Positions 50,625-58,601 are shown, numbered from the stretch's first letter. The stretch is 64,000 nt of DNA from Candidatus Latescibacterota bacterium (GCA_965248435.1 OZ252100.1:4896001-4960000), one strand, 5' to 3'. Numbers and translations are program-made. The notes: generated by a model from the letters alone, not told the origin.

Positions 50625-50784
50625 TGTTTCCTCCTGAAAGGGTTAACGTGAATACCGACTCGAACCTTACCCAAAATACAAACTATCATATCAGGGTAGA
50701 ACCTGCAATGTAGGCAAACGCTGCCCGACCATCCACAAGTTCGATGACCTCTTCCAGGCAAGGCATCCGAAAGTGTTGGTTGCT

Positions 50785-50938
50785 GTAGTGGGACCGTGGA
50801 GAACTACGGGTAGAATTATAAAATCACGCCCACACAGCTTGCTGGGCTATAGGCCGCCGGCGCCTGAAACGGTCTCAGAACCGCTAGTCGCAACCGCATC
50901 CTAACTCTGGACGTGGATACATAGGTGGGGGCAGGTCA
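50785..50938 (+). mobile_element. IS3-family right-end remnant
   Basis: Encodes RPHSLLGYRPPAPE and ends ...ggggcaggtca, typical of an IS3 OrfB end and IRR. Confidence 0.7.
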
Positions 50939-51209: not shown

Positions 51210-51872
51210 TTACTCCTCGAAGGGAAAGTAGTCGAGGACGTCGTACTCCCACACATTGGTGGGAAAGATTACGACCAGTTCGGCCAAGTCCTCGCCCAAG
51301 TTCTTGAATGAGTGGGGGACCATAGGAGGAATATTGACGATATAGGGGGCTTCCAATGTGAACACCGAATCGCCCAGCGCGTAAAGGATGGTCCCCTCCA
51401 ACAGGACGTGCGCTTCTTCCCCTACGTGCGTGTGCATCGGAGGTGCACCTCCGGGGGCCGTATAGGTGATGCCCACGGTCAGGTTCTGATAGCCGTGCCG
51501 CTGCCCTTCCATGACGTGCACATATTCGCCCGGCCCTGGGTTGATGACGACGAGTTCTTTCTTCTCAAGAGCAAACTCGCCCACCAATGTCATAGCCGGG
51601 GACTTGAAGTCACCGGGGATCCTGCGGGTTTCGATAATGCCGTGGGGGTGATGTTGTGCATGCAACTGCTTTCTCGCTTCATCAATCGAGCTGATTAGTT
51701 CTCCGTGTGTGATCGTCTGTCCTAGCTTGGCGTCCTCGGGTGAATACGTAACAGTCGGTTCCGGTGGCAGCGTGGAGGATTTATCTTTCGCGTCGGACGG
51801 CTCTAAGTAAGCCAAGCCAACGATGCCTATGAGGATGAAGCTAACGACAATACGTGGTGTATACCTGTGCAT
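51210..51872 (-). CDS. Exported cupin-domain protein (cassette gene)
   Basis: N-terminal hydrophobic segment; PPMHTH..EE.H, PP.VPHSF.N; RBS ggaggg. Confidence 0.8.
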   Translation of the reverse strand: MHRYTPRIVVSFILIGIVGLAYLEPSDAKDKSSTLPPEPTVTYSPEDAKLGQTITHGELISSIDEARKQLHAQHHPHGIIETRRIPGDFKSPAMTLVGEFALEKKELVVINPGPGEYVHVMEGQRHGYQNLTVGITYTAPGGAPPMHTHVGEEAHVLLEGTILYALGDSVFTLEAPYIVNIPPMVPHSFKNLGEDLAELVVIFPTNVWEYDVLDYFPFEE

Positions 51873-51923: not shown

Positions 51924-52009
51924 AGGTAACGTTCTCGGCACCCACGAACCCGCGCAGCGGGTTGGGCGGAAGCCCGAATGGGCTGAAGCCGTGGGTGCTC
52001 GTGTTAGCG
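51924..52009 (-). repeat. attC-like cassette site (non-canonical)
   Basis: aac..gcacccacg-[two hairpins]-cgtgggtgc..gtt. Confidence 0.8.
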
Positions 52010-52041
52010 GATGTCGCCGACGGAGCTGGCCTGGGAGGCTA

Positions 52042-52947
52042 TTAGAGTTTCGGCATAGGCCATTCGGCGATTGGCCTTCCCGACCAGGTTGACCGACTGA
52101 AGAATCGTCCACCCGCACGGTTGATGGAGCCGAACCACGCCTGGATCGCAATTCCCCAGAAATGCTCAAAGGATCTATCCTTCAGATTCAGATCAGCACG
52201 GTCGTAATGCGACAGGACCTCATCTACGAACACCTCGCCGTACACCCAGAAACCATAGAAGTCCTTGGCCGGGTCAGTGATTTCGATGTCGCCCCAGTCT
52301 ATGATCCCGGTCAGCTTTCCTGAAGAAGGATCGTGGTAGATGTGCTTGTACCATAGATCATTGTGAGCCAGCACTGGTACGAATGCGTGATCAATGCTCT
52401 CACTTCTTTCGATCCAGGAACCGAAGACATCCCGAACCTCTGGCTCAAGTTCGTCGGCCCGATCTGCGAAGACCTTCTTGGCCTCCGACCGGTAAAACAG
52501 GGACCTGTCGCCATCCACCACACCAACACTCCGAGCCTCCGAGACTGGATAACTGTGAAGTTCGTTGAGGAAGACGCCAAGCCTGCTTGCCGCTTCTGCC
52601 CTCCTGAATCTTGGTAGCCTGGAGAATCGCCAAGGTGAGAGCCGCGTTCCTTGAATTGCCTTATATCCAGCGAAATCCGACGCGCTGGGAATAAAGGTGT
52701 AATCCGGAACTGGGATGCTATTAATCTCACGCCTGATGGCGCTGAGCACCGTCCGCTCCCGCGGAAGGCTCAGCCCTGTGTCCGCTACATCATTCAGAAA
52801 ACGAAAGGCAATCCCGTTGTCTAGCAGGATCATTACATGATCAGGGTATTTGTGGGTCTGAGCTCTCCGGTATTTTGACCACCTGAGTTTGGGGAACGAG
52901 TCCTTGATCCTCTGCAGATAGTAGTTTGTATCGTAGGGAGTCGTCAC
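52042..52947 (-). CDS. APH-like phosphotransferase (cassette gene)
   Basis: HNDLWYKHI, GIIDWGD, DPAKDF; GTG after ggag. Confidence 0.85.
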   Translation of the reverse strand: MTTPYDTNYYLQRIKDSFPKLRWSKYRRAQTHKYPDHVMILLDNGIAFRFLNDVADTGLSLPRERTVLSAIRREINSIPVPDYTFIPSASDFAGYKAIQGTRLSPWRFSRLPRFRRAEAASRLGVFLNELHSYPVSEARSVGVVDGDRSLFYRSEAKKVFADRADELEPEVRDVFGSWIERSESIDHAFVPVLAHNDLWYKHIYHDPSSGKLTGIIDWGDIEITDPAKDFYGFWVYGEVFVDEVLSHYDRADLNLKDRSFEHFWGIAIQAWFGSINRAGGRFFSRSTWSGRPIAEWPMPKL

Positions 52948-52994
52948 GAGATCTCCAGGATCAAAGTGGACCCTAACACAAAGGCGGCGATTTC

Positions 52995-53079
52995 CGCTAA
53001 CGTTCTCGGCACCCACGAACCCGCCGCAGGGGGTTGGGCGAAGGCCGGATGGCCTGAGCCGTGCACGGTCGTGTTAGAG
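52995..53079 (-). repeat. attC-like cassette site (non-canonical)
   Basis: Shares taacgttctcggcacccacgaacccgc with the 51924 site; ends tcgtgttag. Confidence 0.8.
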
Positions 53080-53125
53080 GCCGTGCGGCCCGGGGCAGGA
53101 AGGGGTTCTCAAGACCTGATCAAGA

Positions 53126-54574
53126 TTAAACCGACTCCGGACCAATCTCTATGGGCAAGCTAATCGTTACTGTCGTACCTTTTCCTACCTCGCTCTCCAT
53201 CTTGATCCTCCCCTTGTGATCCTGGATAATCCTGTAGTCCGTAGACAATCCTAAACCCATTTTCACCCGAAGATCGGTGGCCTGAAAATCAACATCGAAG
53301 ATGCGTTCTAACTGCTCCGGTGGAATTCCCACGCCCGTGTCGCTGATCCGGACACAGACCTTGTCGTCCTCCTCAAAGGTGCTGACTCTTATTTCCCCAG
53401 TTTCCTCGATAGCCTGGAGCGCGTTCTTGAGCAGGTGCATGAAGACCTGGTTCAGTTGTCCGGGAGAACAGTAGATCGGCGGGATGTTCCCGTATTTCTT
53501 GACCACGGTGATGTTTTCGCCTATCCGGTTTTGTAGCAGCGTCAGGGCGCTGTCGATCCCCGCGTGAAGGTCTACCACCTGGAACTCGGCTTCGTCCAGT
53601 CGTGCGAAATTTCGCAGACTGCCCACAATGCTGCTCAACCGTTCGGCACCGCTTGCCATCACCCGGTTGGCATCGGCTATTGCCTTGAACACCGATTGAA
53701 TGGTCCGATTATCTTTATACTCTCCGGGAAAGGTCATCTCCAGCGTTTGTTTCAGTTTACCTATAGCCCGTACCTGAGTATCGTGCATACTCGTAATAGC
53801 GCCAAGAGGCGTATTCATCTCGTGAGCCACACCGGCTATCAGACTACCCAGAGAGGCCATTTTCTCCTGCATGATAAGCTGACTCTGTGTCTCTTTGAGC
53901 TGATGCAGGGCATCTTCCAGGGCTCGGTTCTGTTCTTCCAGATACTGGAAATCGAGGGTTCGGAGATACGCCAGCGACAGCGCGTCGGTCCATTCCTCTA
54001 TTTTGATCAAGTGTTCTGGATCGGTTCCCCGGTGGCGAATCCCGATCCAACCGTACTCAAACGGCACGTTGGTAATAACCCATCCTTCACTCCCAAAAAA
54101 CGGCAGTTGTCGGTCGAAGCCCATCAGCTCGTGAAAAGGCTGCATTTCCGCTTTGTCCTCCTCCGAACTCCGCGCAATAGACCAGACCTTGCCCTCGCGC
54201 CACTGACCCAGATCCTCCTCCCAATCAGCCGTAATGGGGACTTCCAATGCCGAAACGGTGGTTGTTTCGTCGATCTCCTTGAGTTCGGGAGAGGTCCACG
54301 AGATGCCATATTGCCGGGGATTTTCCAGGGCGGCGTACCACAGAATGCGGCCTTTGTCCTCGTCGACGAAGAAAAAGCCACACCCTGGTGCCTCTATATC
54401 CAGCCGCGAAAGCTCCTTGAACATCACCAGGATCACCTGGAGAAGGTCCTCCCTGGAACGCATGGACAGCACTTCGACCCGTATGCGTTCGATTGTTTTC
54501 TCCTGGGCTCGTTGTTGCCTAAGTTCGGCTAGTTCAATCCGGAGTTGCTCTTTGGACATCTCCATGTCTCTCAT
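53126..54574 (-). CDS. Orphan sensor histidine kinase with a GAF-like N-terminus (cassette gene)
   Basis: EKMASLG..AGVAHEMNTP, QVF..LL.NA, DTGVGI, GLGL, G.GT. Confidence 0.92.
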   Translation of the reverse strand: MRDMEMSKEQLRIELAELRQQRAQEKTIERIRVEVLSMRSREDLLQVILVMFKELSRLDIEAPGCGFFFVDEDKGRILWYAALENPRQYGISWTSPELKEIDETTTVSALEVPITADWEEDLGQWREGKVWSIARSSEEDKAEMQPFHELMGFDRQLPFFGSEGWVITNVPFEYGWIGIRHRGTDPEHLIKIEEWTDALSLAYLRTLDFQYLEEQNRALEDALHQLKETQSQLIMQEKMASLGSLIAGVAHEMNTPLGAITSMHDTQVRAIGKLKQTLEMTFPGEYKDNRTIQSVFKAIADANRVMASGAERLSSIVGSLRNFARLDEAEFQVVDLHAGIDSALTLLQNRIGENITVVKKYGNIPPIYCSPGQLNQVFMHLLKNALQAIEETGEIRVSTFEEDDKVCVRISDTGVGIPPEQLERIFDVDFQATDLRVKMGLGLSTDYRIIQDHKGRIKMESEVGKGTTVTISLPIEIGPESV

Positions 54575-54604
54575 GCTAAACAACCTTGTTTTGGGCCGGA
54601 TGGC

Positions 54605-54692
54605 CTATAACGTTCCCGGCACCCACGAACCTGGCGAAGCCAGGTTGGGCGGAAGCCCGAATGGGCTGGAGCCGTGGGTGCTCGTGTTAACT
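54605..54692 (-). repeat. attC-like cassette site (non-canonical)
   Basis: Near copy of the 51924 site with a compensatory inner hairpin aacctggc/gccaggtt. Confidence 0.82.
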
Positions 54693-54713
54693 GCAGTTGC
54701 GCAGACCGCTTTG

Positions 54714-55634
54714 TCAGATCTTCGCGATAATGGAATCTAAGTAATCGTCGAATCGACAAAACAGGACTTCCTGACCTGGGTCTTTTATGCCGTATTCAGT
54801 CCAAGGAGGATAAAATCCTGGCTTCGGAATCGCCCAATCCAGAATAGAATCTATCTCCCAGAATGAGTGATACAGGTAATGTGGAGCAGCGACCTTGTGG
54901 TATTTCTCTCGGAAACTGCCTGCTATTTCGGGGCCGAACATCGTGGCAAGATTAATCTGACAATGAGCTACGTCCACGTTTGCGGGTCCCAGACAAGCGC
55001 CAACCCAATCGACGATCCCGGTCAGCTTTCCAGATACCCATAGGATGTTAACTGGATGGTAGTCGCGGTGGAGAAACACCTCGTCATAGGGAGGCGATTC
55101 TTCGAGTCTAATGTTGATTGCCTTCTCCCAAAGTTCAGATCGTTTCGACCAAGGTGGTACACAAAGTGTCTCGACTTCGGTATAGCTCTGGTAGTGCCAT
55201 CTTACACCATAAACCGCGATACTATGAATAGTCGCCAAGGTCTCCGCTAGTTGGTCGAGCCAATGGTCCAAATTGGCCGGCTTTATGTTCACAGTTCCAT
55301 CCAAACAGCTCATTAGAAGAGCGGGGTATCCGAAAACCGAAGTGTCTGCACTGTAATCGAGCAGATGAGGCGTTGGAAGGTCGGCAGAACTCAGCAATCG
55401 AAGCGCAGCCGCCTCCCGCACGATTGGATCTGGCTCCCTACCAAGCCGTTCCTCATCCACATAGAGACGTAATACATACCTTCTAGATTCACCTGCGACA
55501 TCTGCTTCCAGCAAGAAAACGGGTGAAGCGGGTCCGCAGATCAGTCTTTTGCTACTGGTCAATTTCGCGCTAGCGCCAATTGCTGAACTGATCCAGTCAG
55601 TAGCCGCACTATTGAGAATGAGTTCCGAACTCAC
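54714..55634 (-). CDS. APH-like phosphotransferase (cassette gene)
   Basis: REAAAL, HRDYHPVNIL, GIVDW, G.A.VD.AHC; ORF open to 55676. Confidence 0.87.
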   Translation of the reverse strand: MSSELILNSAATDWISSAIGASAKLTSSKRLICGPASPVFLLEADVAGESRRYVLRLYVDEERLGREPDPIVREAAALRLLSSADLPTPHLLDYSADTSVFGYPALLMSCLDGTVNIKPANLDHWLDQLAETLATIHSIAVYGVRWHYQSYTEVETLCVPPWSKRSELWEKAINIRLEESPPYDEVFLHRDYHPVNILWVSGKLTGIVDWVGACLGPANVDVAHCQINLATMFGPEIAGSFREKYHKVAAPHYLYHSFWEIDSILDWAIPKPGFYPPWTEYGIKDPGQEVLFCRFDDYLDSIIAKI

Positions 55635-55680
55635 AGCGACTCCAGAATCAAATAAGAAGGGGTTAGGGCTGCGCAATTGC

Positions 55681-55761
55681 AGTTAACGGTCTAGGCACTT
55701 GCGAACCCCGGAGGGGTTTGCCGAGGGCCGTCAGGCCCGAGCCGCAAGTGCCTTGTTAACT
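55681..55761 (-). repeat. attC-like cassette site (non-canonical)
   Basis: aac-N6-ggcacttgcg-[aacccc/ggggtt, gggcc/ggccc]-cgcaagtgcc-N2-gtt. Confidence 0.8.
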
Positions 55762-55778
55762 GCTGTTGCGCCCGGGTG

Positions 55779-56642
55779 TCAATAGAGCCTCTTCACCTCT
55801 TGGAGTCGAGTCAGCACATGTCTCTCGTAGGCCGTTTTCAGTCGCAATGAATCCCACGGTTTCCCCCGTCTCTTGATAGAGTCCACGACTACCGAGCCAA
55901 AACCGAATGCCATGTAGTAGGGGAGATCTGCGGCGTCTACGCCGAAGAACCTGAGATCTCTGAGCCGAGAAAATAGCCGAGACGCAGGCCAAATAGGATT
56001 GTGGAGCAGGACTCCCACTAGAATCTCCTTTGTGCCGAAAAAGGCTTGCTCAAAATCAATAAATCTGTGGATGGCCCCGTTTTTCAGGAACAGGTTCTCT
56101 GGATTCCAGTCCAGCTTGATCAGCAGGTCTTCTGAAATCTCAACCCTGGCCACCGAGTCGCAGATGTCCTGAAAAATCGGACCGCAATCTCCGACATCCT
56201 TTGCCAGACGAGATAGGTTGTCAATCAAGGTCCCGAGATTTTCCTCTGCCCCAATCCCTTCGTAGTATTCGCCTTTGAGTTCGAGAGTTGGCTCTGGCCC
56301 CCTGAACAGACTTATGAGTTCATCGACGTAGTTATCGGTCAACTCGAGTAGCTCATCAGAGGGAAGTGGGCTGATGTCGCTCATCCGATCTCCCTCTGCT
56401 CGTTCGATAACGATGTAGTCATTGACACTCAGATCAATGAGTTTGGGGATTAGCTTTGACTCTTTGTAATGAGACAAGAATCCTACTTCACGCCTGAATT
56501 TGCCTGCTCTTTCCCCGTTTCCGCTGTAAGTCTTCTTCACAGACTTTCCATCGGAGAGGAACTCGATTTGGCTCTTCCTGCCTTGAGGCGATTTATGCAC
56601 GGCAGATTCTCGCTTCTTTAGAGTCTTTCCCAATGGGCGCAA
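55779..56642 (-). CDS. Divergent APH/kinase-like protein (cassette gene)
   Basis: VKK, REV, PKLI, DWNPENL..IDFE kinase-fold motifs; start could be GTG 56600. Confidence 0.7.
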   Translation of the reverse strand: MRPLGKTLKKRESAVHKSPQGRKSQIEFLSDGKSVKKTYSGNGERAGKFRREVGFLSHYKESKLIPKLIDLSVNDYIVIERAEGDRMSDISPLPSDELLELTDNYVDELISLFRGPEPTLELKGEYYEGIGAEENLGTLIDNLSRLAKDVGDCGPIFQDICDSVARVEISEDLLIKLDWNPENLFLKNGAIHRFIDFEQAFFGTKEILVGVLLHNPIWPASRLFSRLRDLRFFGVDAADLPYYMAFGFGSVVVDSIKRRGKPWDSLRLKTAYERHVLTRLQEVKRLY

Positions 56643-56646
56643 TTGC

Positions 56647-56793
56647 AGTTAACGTTCTTCAGGTTTACGACGCCTGCTGTCCCGAAGGGCTGGCGCGGCA
56701 TTTGCGCTTCTCACCAAATGACGTGACAGAAGCAGGTGTGCCCCAAGGGCCAAGCGGAACGAAGTGGAGCGCAGCGTAAACCTGGTGTTAACA
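56647..56793 (-). repeat. Long attC-like cassette site (non-canonical)
   Basis: aac-N6-caggtttacg...cgtaaacctg-N2-gtt with a large branched interior. Confidence 0.75.
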
Positions 56794-56927
56794 GATGGCA
56801 CGCGCCGGGGTGGTTGTGGGGGCGGGCCAGGACGGCCCGCGTAGGGGTGCTTTTTCTGATTTTGACTCCAAGTTTTTAAATAAAGCGTGCTGTCATCAAC
56901 ATCGTTCTCTTTATGTTTTATCTTCCA

Positions 56928-56984
56928 ATTTAACGTGCCGATAAGCGGCGGCGATTAGCCGTCCGCTCCACTGGCTAGTTCGCC
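56928..56984 (-). repeat. Canonical-type short attC site
   Basis: Minus strand GGCGAAC-TAGCC-AGTGGAGC-GGACGGCTAATCGCCGCC-GCTTATC-GGCAC-GTTAAAT. Confidence 0.78.
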
Positions 56985-57037
56985 TCGACCTTCGTCCACC
57001 TGAAGAGCTGTCGACAGCTGACCCGTGTGCTCCGCCT

Positions 57038-58096
57038 TCACCACTGCACGCGGAGGCGCGTCCAACGGATGCCGCAGACGTCGTCCTCTACGCACCAATG
57101 AACGGCAAGCACGATGTTGTCCTCAAGCAAAAGGCCCATCGGATAGCCGAACTGAATGAGCCCGATCTGCTCCTGACTGCTGACGTCCTCGGTAAGCTCA
57201 AGCCTTGACCGACCGTCGAACAGGGTGCCTTCGAACTCAAGCGACCAGCACGCGCCCGACACTCGGACCAGGCACATCTGTACGCTCTGGTCACCGAAGC
57301 GTCTGTTGTACAGCACGAGATACCGATCGTCCCCGAGCCAGATCGGGGTCATTGTCTGACCCTGGATACCGGTAGGGTACGGTCCTTCCCAACTGCGGCC
57401 GCCGTCGGTCGATACGCTAAACGCGTTCCTCAGGTCAGTGTCTCCCGCGAAGTCCTGGACCCACGCAATGGCCAGCATTTGTCCCGGTTCCGTCTCGATC
57501 AGCTTCTGCTCCAGATACCCGATGCCGGTGCCGGGGTCCTGGAAGACAGTATACATGCTCGGCCAGGTCGCCCCCTGGTCGGACGATTCGTGCAGCACCA
57601 CGCGCTCCCCGTAACGCCCGTCGTATAATGTCGCGGCCGGAGCGAGCCAGCGTCCGTCAGCGGTGACGACAATCGGGTTCGAGATCTCATAGGGCCCCGC
57701 AATCTGAAAGGGAATAACTTCGGGAAAGGACCACGTATGGCCGCCGTCCGTCGAGCGGCACAGCACGGGTTCACAGACGCGACCCCGTCCGCCGTCCGCG
57801 ATGCTCAGCTTCTGGTCGCGCTGGCCGTACGCGAGGATCGTTCCGTCCGCGGTGCGGCTGAGGCGCAGATGGTTGGTCTTCACCGGGCTCTCGTCCCGCT
57901 TGAGGACGACGCCCAGGTACGACCAGATGAAGCCCCCATCGGCAGAACGGGCGCAGTGCGTGTCGCCTTGCGCGTGAGCTCCGCCGCCGCGACTGAACCC
58001 GCAGACGATGTCGCCGCTATCTAACCGTACTAAGGTGGGAAACGCTGAGTCGCCGCGGTCGATGTGGCCGGTACCGAGAATCTCGATAGTGGACAT
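57038..58096 (-). CDS. Asp-box (BNR) sialidase-like beta-propeller protein (nested cassette gene)
   Basis: SADGG.IW, STDGGHTW, SSDQGATW, STDGGRSW; RBS ggagg. Confidence 0.85.
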   Translation of the reverse strand: MSTIEILGTGHIDRGDSAFPTLVRLDSGDIVCGFSRGGGAHAQGDTHCARSADGGFIWSYLGVVLKRDESPVKTNHLRLSRTADGTILAYGQRDQKLSIADGGRGRVCEPVLCRSTDGGHTWSFPEVIPFQIAGPYEISNPIVVTADGRWLAPAATLYDGRYGERVVLHESSDQGATWPSMYTVFQDPGTGIGYLEQKLIETEPGQMLAIAWVQDFAGDTDLRNAFSVSTDGGRSWEGPYPTGIQGQTMTPIWLGDDRYLVLYNRRFGDQSVQMCLVRVSGACWSLEFEGTLFDGRSRLELTEDVSSQEQIGLIQFGYPMGLLLEDNIVLAVHWCVEDDVCGIRWTRLRVQW

Positions 58097-58209
58097 GGAA
58101 TCCTCCAGGCATCTGCGAACTATTTCCTATACGGAAAAATCGCCGAAGAAAGCTATCAATGGTTTTCTTGGCGGCCAGGACGGCCGCCGGTTGTGGTTTT
58201 GAATTTGAT

Positions 58210-58330
58210 GCGTGCTTTCTGTTAACTTCTGCATTCGCGCCCCATCGGCGCAAATACCACCCGATAGGGCAAATAATGCGCACTGCGCAGATCCTGCCAA
58301 TAATATAGATAATGCGCCTTATTTCGTGAA
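58210..58330 (-). other. Candidate attI-like primary recombination site
   Basis: Minus-strand GTTAACAG core with no closing arm; direct repeats ataatgcgc x2 and gcaaata x2 between the core and the integrase stop. Confidence 0.5.
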
Positions 58331-58352
58331 TGCTATTTATAGGAGACACCAA

Positions 58353-58601
58353 TTAACCGGAACCTGTCTCCCTCTCCATCGGGTCGTCCAGGGGATTCCT
58401 AATCTGGGCGAGGTCCCTCCGGGTCATGTGAGTATGGATTCCCGTCGTTTTTGAACTTTTGTGGCTCAGGAGCTCCTGGATGTATCGGAGGTCCGTGCCC
58501 CTTTCAAGAAGATGGGTCGCAAATGAGTGTCTGAGGGTGTGTACGGACACCGGCTTCTCAATACCGGCCCGTTTGTAAGCTTGGTCGAAGATTTTCTGCA
58601 C
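58353..58601 (-). pseudogene. Tyrosine recombinase C-terminal fragment, catalytically dead
   Basis: [38 protein letters not shown]; catalytic Tyr replaced by His; no N-terminus. Confidence 0.85.

Follow-up and report, generated by a model that had tools for sequence, protein, structure and literature searches.

A candidate integron-like cassette array in Candidatus Latescibacterota with attC-like sites of non-canonical geometry and a recombinase lacking the IntI-specific insertions

Results

A gene-cassette array in the window

We analyzed a stretch of 64,000 nucleotides (nt) from Candidatus Latescibacterota bacterium (GCA_965248435.1 OZ252100.1:4896001-4960000), hereafter called the window, in which positions are counted from the first letter. 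Positions 51928-58601 are likely to be the head of an integron-like gene-cassette array, as judged from the arrangement of sites and genes. On the minus strand a tyrosine recombinase stump is followed by a 127-nt attI-like site and five cassettes, each consisting of a gene and an attC-like site, and the long open frames between the sites were all found on this strand. The plus-strand AAC of the five sites is located at 51928, 52999, 54609, 55685, and 56651, and a GTT closes each of them. Because each gene has a site after it on its own strand, the cassettes have the minus strand as their top strand and the plus strand as their bottom strand. The features are as follows (arrows mark crossover points; R1 is a covariance model of the sites and z the z-score of the predicted fold):

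58353..58601, minus: remnant of a tyrosine recombinase gene (LatI), C-terminal 82 amino acids (aa); the 5' part of the gene is lost
58226..58352, minus: attI-like site, ending 127 nt after the recombinase stop; crossover G↓TT on the minus strand
57038..58096, minus: cassette 1 gene, BNR repeat-like protein, 352 aa
56651..56789, plus: attC-like site 5, long type, belonging to the first cassette; R1 30.3 bits
55779..56642, minus: cassette 2 gene, 287 aa, no family match
55685..55757, plus: attC-like site 4, no bulged base; R box extended to 19 nt together with the cassette's own start; z -8.8; R1 79.6 bits
54714..55676, minus: cassette 3 gene, APH-family phosphotransferase, 320 aa
54609..54688, plus: attC-like site 3; R1 90.2 bits
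53126..54583, minus: cassette 4 gene, sensor histidine kinase, 485 aa
52999..53076, plus: attC-like site 2, right arm of the main stem degenerate; 4x4 loop; z -0.08; R1 75.6 bits
52042..53016, minus: cassette 5 gene, APH-family phosphotransferase, 324 aa as listed, although translation probably starts further in
51928..52005, plus: attC-like site 1, last in the array; T bulge on the 3' arm; R1 88.6 bits

The cassettes are 1071, 1610, 1076, 966, and 1573 nt long in plus-strand order. The right flank of each site is the reverse complement of the left flank of the next (8/8, 9/10, 18/19, and 17/19 letters), and such complementarity over 8-19 nt is, on sequence grounds, the mark that circularising cassettes leave. 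The first cassette is closed by a sixth boundary, CTGTTAA↓C (58219-58226), and at the attI crossover (plus-strand AA↓C, 58225/58226) its start and its own attC flank match. The array is probably inactive now, since the enzyme gene at its head is broken and the genome yielded no intact copy. A DNA search across the whole family matched homologous genes and attC sites, but in no clear case was a given cassette found in a different context. Four public sequencing runs of one sample contain the window as short contigs that break at the repeated sites, and the joints in those contigs (e.g., 53030 to 54604) have sides of at most 30 letters, lie inside repeats, and are uninformative on excision. Rfam gave zero matches in the window at gathering thresholds.

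Fold and covariation of the sites

Both strands of each site were folded, as a preliminary description of this DNA had proposed. The plus strands of sites 1-5, as single-stranded DNA, gave folds of -26.6, -19.5, -25.7, -41.4, and -36.0 kcal/mol with z-scores of -3.6, -0.1, -3.9, -8.8, and -4.0, and the minus-strand fold was weaker at all five. The degenerate right arm reported for site 2 is reflected in its z-score, which is close to zero compared to the other four.

We aligned 26 short sites of the window's own genome (G000; G and L numbers are our labels for genomes and loci) and derived their structure with RNAalifold and, independently, from pair counts. In this alignment, termed A1, 9 of 16 outer pairs change on both sides and 96.4% of the cells pair, a level reached by none of 500 shuffles. 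A larger alignment of 48 sites (46 distinct) was drawn from G000, the loci of nine relatives of family f1, seven loci from other families, and one metagenome contig. Here 16 of 23 pairs change on both sides and 96.2% of the cells pair, in an alignment that was fitted to R1, which favours pairing figures; none of 500 shuffles reached any of the measures, and pairing dropped to 34-45% when the partners were slid. The compensatory changes first noticed in the four short sites of the window are therefore real, and the covariation was retained in the larger alignment.

Read from its base, the consensus consists of an R box, TAACG/TGTTA, that includes a G.T pair, followed by a 4-nt bulge on the 5' arm (TTCT or GTCT), 2 bp, an optional bulged base, a 9-bp stem, and a three-way junction. 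The G.T pair at the end of the R box was found in all 26 A1 sites and in 45 of the 46 distinct sites. Within A1, pair 13-99 is CG in 18 sites, AU in two, GC in one, UA in one, and another combination in four. Pair 14-98 is GC in 22 sites and another standard pair in four, with three double changes and no site unpaired (0/26), while the alternative pair 14-97, that of the preliminary description, fares worse (GU 11, GC 1, other 5, gap 9). Seven pairs of the 9-bp stem vary on both sides, and the two inner hairpins covary too. A single unpaired base, mostly dT, is present on the 3' arm of 17 of the 26 sites, including those at 51928, 52999, and 54609, and the sites at 55685 and 56651 have no such bulged base. 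The stems and inner hairpins quoted in the preliminary description are present as written and AAC-N6-stem...stem-N2/3-GTT is a fair literal summary of the sites; its statement that they contain no single extrahelical base holds for 55685 and 56651 and fails for the other three.

Geometry compared to canonical attC sites

All sites were folded in one pipeline, with AAC forced to pair with GTT and with DNA parameters. The G000 set comprised 74 sites (the 73 R1 matches and site 5), six of which have no AAC or GTT end, and 68 were folded. As controls we used the attC sites of arr-3, dfrA27, and aadA16, which belong to a class 1 integron of a Shewanella plasmid, together with two located next to the classical IntI of another Latescibacterota genome, G097. 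In 47 of the 68 sites an R box of 4-5 bp is followed by a 4x0 bulge, and then most often by 2 bp, a 0x1 bulge, and 9 bp. The controls had two-sided loops (2x2, 2x2, 9x9, 3x3, and 3x2) together with single-base bulges on the 3' arm, which in one of the G097 sites are 6 bp apart. The bottom strand was the more stable in 63 of the 68 sites (mean 4.2 kcal/mol). The same 4x0 bulge recurs in other families of the phylum (11 of 14 sites), where its letters vary (TTCT, TTTC, TTTT, TGCC, CTGT, and others). Since the letters vary while the 4x0 bulge persists, it is the shape that is kept.

In the structural account given in the available text of Nivina 2016 (PMC5027507), the central spacer of a canonical attC is unpaired, with 5-6 bases on each arm, and the L'' arm carries extrahelical bases at position 16 (usually dG) and at position 23 or 24 (dT), separated by a 6-bp stem. 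The sites described here keep the canonical 5'-arm spacing (AAC plus 5-6), whereas the 3'-arm spacer and the canonical extrahelical bases are missing. The spacer is thus a one-sided 4-nt bulge, and the optional bulged base is located 2 bp above it and not at either of the canonical places. The non-canonical geometry claimed for the sites was therefore borne out, but their branched interiors do not set them apart, since the same source describes branched terminal structures as frequent among attC sites of chromosomal integrons. By comparison with the controls, the sites would form a different folded single-stranded substrate, as had been proposed.

Distribution of the site family

Simple scans detected about 45 like sites at nine places in the 5.67-Mb genome of the window, and R1 gave 73 matches at E <=0.01. 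Of the 22 genomes of the Genome Taxonomy Database (GTDB) family, 20 have R1 sites, and every one of the five genera is represented. When 185,579 genomes, one per species, were scanned for the exact motif, 24 stretches were returned, where about nine chance matches are expected by our own estimate. Twenty of these come from metagenome-assembled genomes titled Candidatus Latescibacterota and the other four from Gemmatimonadota, Rhodobacteraceae, Lachnospiraceae, and Bacillus; no close LatI was found in two of the non-Latescibacterota genomes. A generic scan for AAC...GTT folds gave many false positives in coding regions and served only to spot candidates. Among 80 metagenome loci with relatives of the recombinase (38-54% identical), many of them on short contigs and searched with R1, which is lineage-specific, there were six R1 matches at E <=1, and three of the 80 loci had R1-like sites at E <0.001. 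Three of the matches were convincing, two in L142 and one in L170, and all three were divergent from the gene.

On these two unrelated contigs (L142 2399-3303 and L170 226-316, GC content 45-48%) the sites are upstream of genes for distant recombinase relatives, in divergent orientation, and have a one-sided bulge of 2-5 nt and the G.T closure. The long type represented by site 5 (56651-56789) has a 94% identical copy in an array of another genus (G013:C1:1664744-1664899), and was also found in G000, G002, and G019 at 79-91% identity, with different neighbouring genes.

The array-head recombinase

We use LatI as a working label for the family of Xer-like tyrosine recombinases found at array heads. 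The stump in the window shares 65-70% identity with a Xer-like protein of G019, about 60% with related proteins, and 50% with IntI. In the alignment the LatI family has none of the three IntI insertions (about 41 residues in all), and the catalytic motifs are kept. A quick IQ-TREE search with midpoint rooting placed 15 IntI proteins in one clade (support 99), 25 LatI and insertion sequence-borne rows in another (support 98), and the host Xer proteins outside. The closest solved protein is VchIntIA (2a3v; 201 bits by profile, Foldseek E 7.7e-15), to which the LatI match is split in two by the missing insertion. The next is archaeal XerA (4a8e, 5hxy), with 178 bits by profile and also close by fold. 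The G019 protein scores below the curated Xer cut-offs (XerC 194 bits against 335; XerD 186 against 330).

No classical IntI was found in G000 above the TIGR02249 cut-off of 265 bits, and no match in G000 or in five relatives covers the IntI-specific model positions 177-236. Within the family a classical IntI was found in G002 only (464.5 bits, plus a partial match of 298), and within the phylum in 17 of 168 genomes. The classical IntI locus of G060 has housekeeping genes downstream and no array. The proposal that a different recombinase acts on the sites is thereby supported on comparative grounds, by the lack of IntI in G000 and by an array-head remnant that belongs to a family without the IntI insertions.

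Spacing of attI and synteny with the sites

We used the complement of the first cassette's own attC flank to place its start. In G000, G019, G018, G016, and G009 the crossover is at +127, +128, +128, +134, and +134 nt, respectively, counted from where the recombinase match ends, directly after the conserved ...taG of ...taG↓TTA. The sequence between stop and crossover is conserved among the g4 genomes and different in G000, as the enzymes are. Further cases of synteny were found in G002 (Lat2b, 9/9 letters), G086, G058, and G111 (weaker, 2 mismatches).

Of 23 stand-alone loci of the LatI family, 17 have R1 sites in the fetched flank, 14 of them downstream and co-oriented with the gene and three divergent (G102, G107, and probably G001), and the association spans four families of the phylum. 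No R1 site was found at the other six loci; two of these contigs end within about 1 kb of the gene. R1 sites were found in the fetched flanks of none of the 14 sources of classical IntI. G002 has both enzymes, and its R1 arrays are found at the two LatI-type genes; the R1 matches nearest to its IntI are 19-23 kb off and on the wrong strand. No Y2 transposase was detected at stand-alone LatI loci by tblastn, and no attC-like hairpin was found between LatI gene and crossover.

The divergent subtype, about 56% identical, is arranged as in classical integrons (L211 12507-15458 in G102, L212 1809-5084 in G107, and L041 in G001). In G019 a second C-terminal LatI remnant with its own attI and crossover lies upstream of the LatI gene (L042 14836-16566), followed by about 1.3 kb with two small open reading frames; it is a tandem remnant of the platform.

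N-terminal domain of full-length LatI proteins

Full-length members (about 370 aa) were found in G076, twice in G002, and among the metagenome proteins. They carry an N-terminal domain of about 95 aa that has no Pfam match above threshold, and which neither VchIntIA (2a3v) nor XerA has. It is encoded in the following regions:

L193 1501-1785
L107 9563-9847
L108 10114-10398
L195 2337-2621

One protein scored 22.3 bits for Pfam HARP (PF07443; cut-off 25), and six of 18 members matched at E <=0.05. A profile search of the Protein Data Bank (PDB) had the HARP domain of SMARCAL1 (4o66) as its top match, a weak one (E 0.029). Foldseek of a predicted model (mean pLDDT 71.7) likewise placed 4o66 on top, with a probability of 0.90 and E 0.037, followed by XPB N-terminal domains. 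These three weak, independent signals all point, if faintly, to a likeness to HARP. HARP is a domain that recognizes forks or junctions.

IS91-like units

G000 contains six near-identical 2.5-kb units that each encode a 283-aa Xer-like recombinase and an IS91-family Y2 transposase (NF033538 452.8 bits against a cut-off of 125; PF04986 and PF14319 match too):

L011 9449-11479
L012 14761-16791
L014 4020-6050
L016 3452-5482
L017 5225-7255
L005

For every unit, the insertion point is precisely the crossover of an attI-like sequence with homology to 58226-58352 of the window; the attI-like site of the window is 82% identical to the sequence preceding one such unit elsewhere in the genome, and in a BLAST search of its own genome this stretch was the only part of the array head that matched. 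The units start with TTGAAC after the crossover dG and end in a hairpin of the form AAC-N3-stem...stem-N8-G↓TT. From this structure the units look like giant cassettes or attI-targeting elements.

Other features of the window

The two APH-family cassette genes (52042-53016 and 54714-55676) have best resistance-family scores of 74.5 and 38.7 bits, far under the curated cut-offs, and no resistance function is therefore implied. An open stretch at 50650-50904 on the plus strand ends ...SRPHSLLGYRPPAPE and presumably resembles the C-terminus of IS3-type transposases; this stretch may be where the truncated far end of the array lies. It is adjoined by a cupin gene (51210-51872), which is not followed by a site.

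Discussion

The likeliest account of the array is that a LatI-type enzyme runs it as an integron-like cassette system, which the arrangement of enzyme, attI, and sites makes probable. The fuller reading is that an I2-less sister lineage of integron integrases, with a HARP-like N-terminal domain and its own attI and attC geometry, runs single-strand cassette capture in Latescibacterota, and for this we estimate a rough probability of 0.55.

The plus (bottom) strand of each site would fold into a hairpin whose R box, TAAC/GTTA, is closed by a G.T pair that can form on the bottom strand only, followed by the one-sided 4-nt bulge, a long stem in which the sequence is free but paired, and the three-way junction. 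A LatI-type recombinase would cut AA↓C in the R box, excise cassettes by recombination from site to site, and insert them at attI, and the junction would be resolved by replication, as in integrons and CTXphi. In the available text of Escudero 2016 (PMC4792948) I2 is an integrase-specific adaptation; recombination of folded single-stranded DNA by IntI is ascribed there and in a 2020 eLife paper (PMC7790495) to gain of the I2 helix, by which the attC extrahelical bases are read. The enzyme considered here has no I2 insertion, and its sites have no canonical extrahelical bases for it to read. Full-length members instead carry the domain that is weakly like the fork-binding domain HARP, and which might sense the bulged or branched hairpin in place of I2.

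An unlikely alternative, though the foremost one, is that the sites are ordinary attC clusters left behind by a classical IntI that was lost, that their geometry is a lineage-specific flavour of attC, and that the Xer-like genes are passengers. A classical IntI does exist in the phylum and in one genome of the family, and clusters without an integrase are common in bacteria according to the available text of Cury 2016 (PMC4889954). The IntI of G002 has a co-oriented downstream attI-like region, rich in 'tatacagac' repeats (L026 4-3732, L028 8475-13573), that holds units ending in hairpins of the same geometry. However, the flanks of the classical IntI sources are free of R1 sites, the sole classical locus with clear sites (G097) has canonical geometry, and the IntI-specific positions are unmatched in G000 and its five relatives. 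The fixed spacing of 127-134 nt between LatI stop and crossover, with a sequence that diverges along with the enzyme, has the look of an integrase-attI pair.

Marginally less probable is that the LatI genes are mobile elements that target the core sites of attI and attC, integrating themselves and not moving cassettes. The recombinases of the IS91-like units fall in the LatI clade, and a site-targeting mobile-element integrase is therefore a live alternative. This fits with the attI crossover being the exact insertion point of all six G000 units, with the like unit after IntI in G002, and with the duplicated remnant with attI upstream of the LatI gene of G019. Against it stand the lack of a Y2 transposase at the stand-alone LatI loci, the lack of an attC-like hairpin between the stand-alone gene and the crossover, the lack of an older integrase remnant of another type upstream, and the association of LatI with the sites across four families. 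That the sites are some other repeated palindrome, such as REP-like elements or terminators, is very improbable. They are indeed intergenic GC-rich hairpins downstream of genes, but the flank complementarity between successive sites contradicts a repeat, and the sites share an unvarying AAC/GTT core. In several genomes the first cassette begins, at a fixed point past the recombinase gene, with a match to its own site, and near-identical sites have different left flanks.

Several observations weigh against a cassette system run by LatI. Intact LatI genes are few, and most of the 22 family genomes with arrays show just XerC/D-like matches to a LatI query. The f1 loci L104, L106, and L109 have the gene and no R1 site, and convincing sites were scarce at the metagenome loci. 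The N-terminal domain is absent from the LatI copy of G019, and in G018 the domain (L195 2337-2621) and the core (L102 9951-10757) are in different frames, 39 nt apart, which could be a real frameshift or a long-read assembly error. Direct signs of excision were not seen, and no second copy of the window cassettes was found elsewhere in their own genome by BLAST. The tree, with its quick search and midpoint rooting, groups the recombinases of the transposase-bearing units with LatI. In G002 an IS91-like unit is located at G↓TTGAAC, 190 nt after the IntI stop. Its terminal hairpin has the geometry of the sites described here, and after it comes a further cassette-like unit that has a similar hairpin and a site ending G↓GAT and not G↓TT. 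Classical IntI may thus act on this geometry in G002.

The array has much in common with sedentary chromosomal integrons. These likewise have a tyrosine recombinase gene with an adjacent attI, a G↓TT crossover, promoterless-looking cassettes with folding AAC/GTT sites, a more stable bottom strand, sites that are homogeneous within a lineage, and branched terminal structures. The differences are that the recombinase here is without the IntI-specific insertions, that the spacer is bulged on one arm and extrahelical bases are missing from the canonical places, and that the recombinase gene points towards the cassettes. A co-oriented 'inverted integrase' group exists among integrons.

As in clusters of attC sites lacking integron-integrases (CALIN), G000 has many arrays and no IntI. 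The available text of Cury 2016 (PMC4889954) reports 50 recombinases without the IntI domain near attC sites, concluded not to be IntI, and recombinases between IntI and Xer that adjoined fewer than three attC sites; here, unlike in that account, one I2-less family heads arrays at a fixed distance. For CTXphi and XerCD, the available text of Escudero 2016 (PMC4792948) describes a hairpin without extrahelical bases and the sole reaction similar to cassette recombination. The likeness is that a Xer-type enzyme without an I2-like domain would act on folded single-stranded DNA that has no extrahelical bases. CTXphi, however, involves a single phage genome, host enzymes, and dif, whereas here many cassettes form arrays that have an attI of their own and a dedicated gene for the enzyme. 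IS91-family elements with a tyrosine recombinase share the LatI clade and are themselves cassette-like, but the LatI genes at array heads stand alone, without a transposase. Our literature search, in which supplementary files were not covered (the recombinase tree of Cury 2016 could bear on the question), found no description of I2-less cassette arrays or of integrons in Latescibacteria.

If capture by an I2-less lineage is correct, I2 would not be required for integron-type chemistry, and the system would have arisen as an independent solution or else be a relative of a pre-I2 ancestor that has survived. Living relatives would then allow the origin of integrons to be tested. An explanation might also be at hand for many orphan attC clusters, and current detection tools, which require the I2 domain, would miss a class of gene-capture platforms. 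It would also provide a second structure-specific recombination system for engineering.

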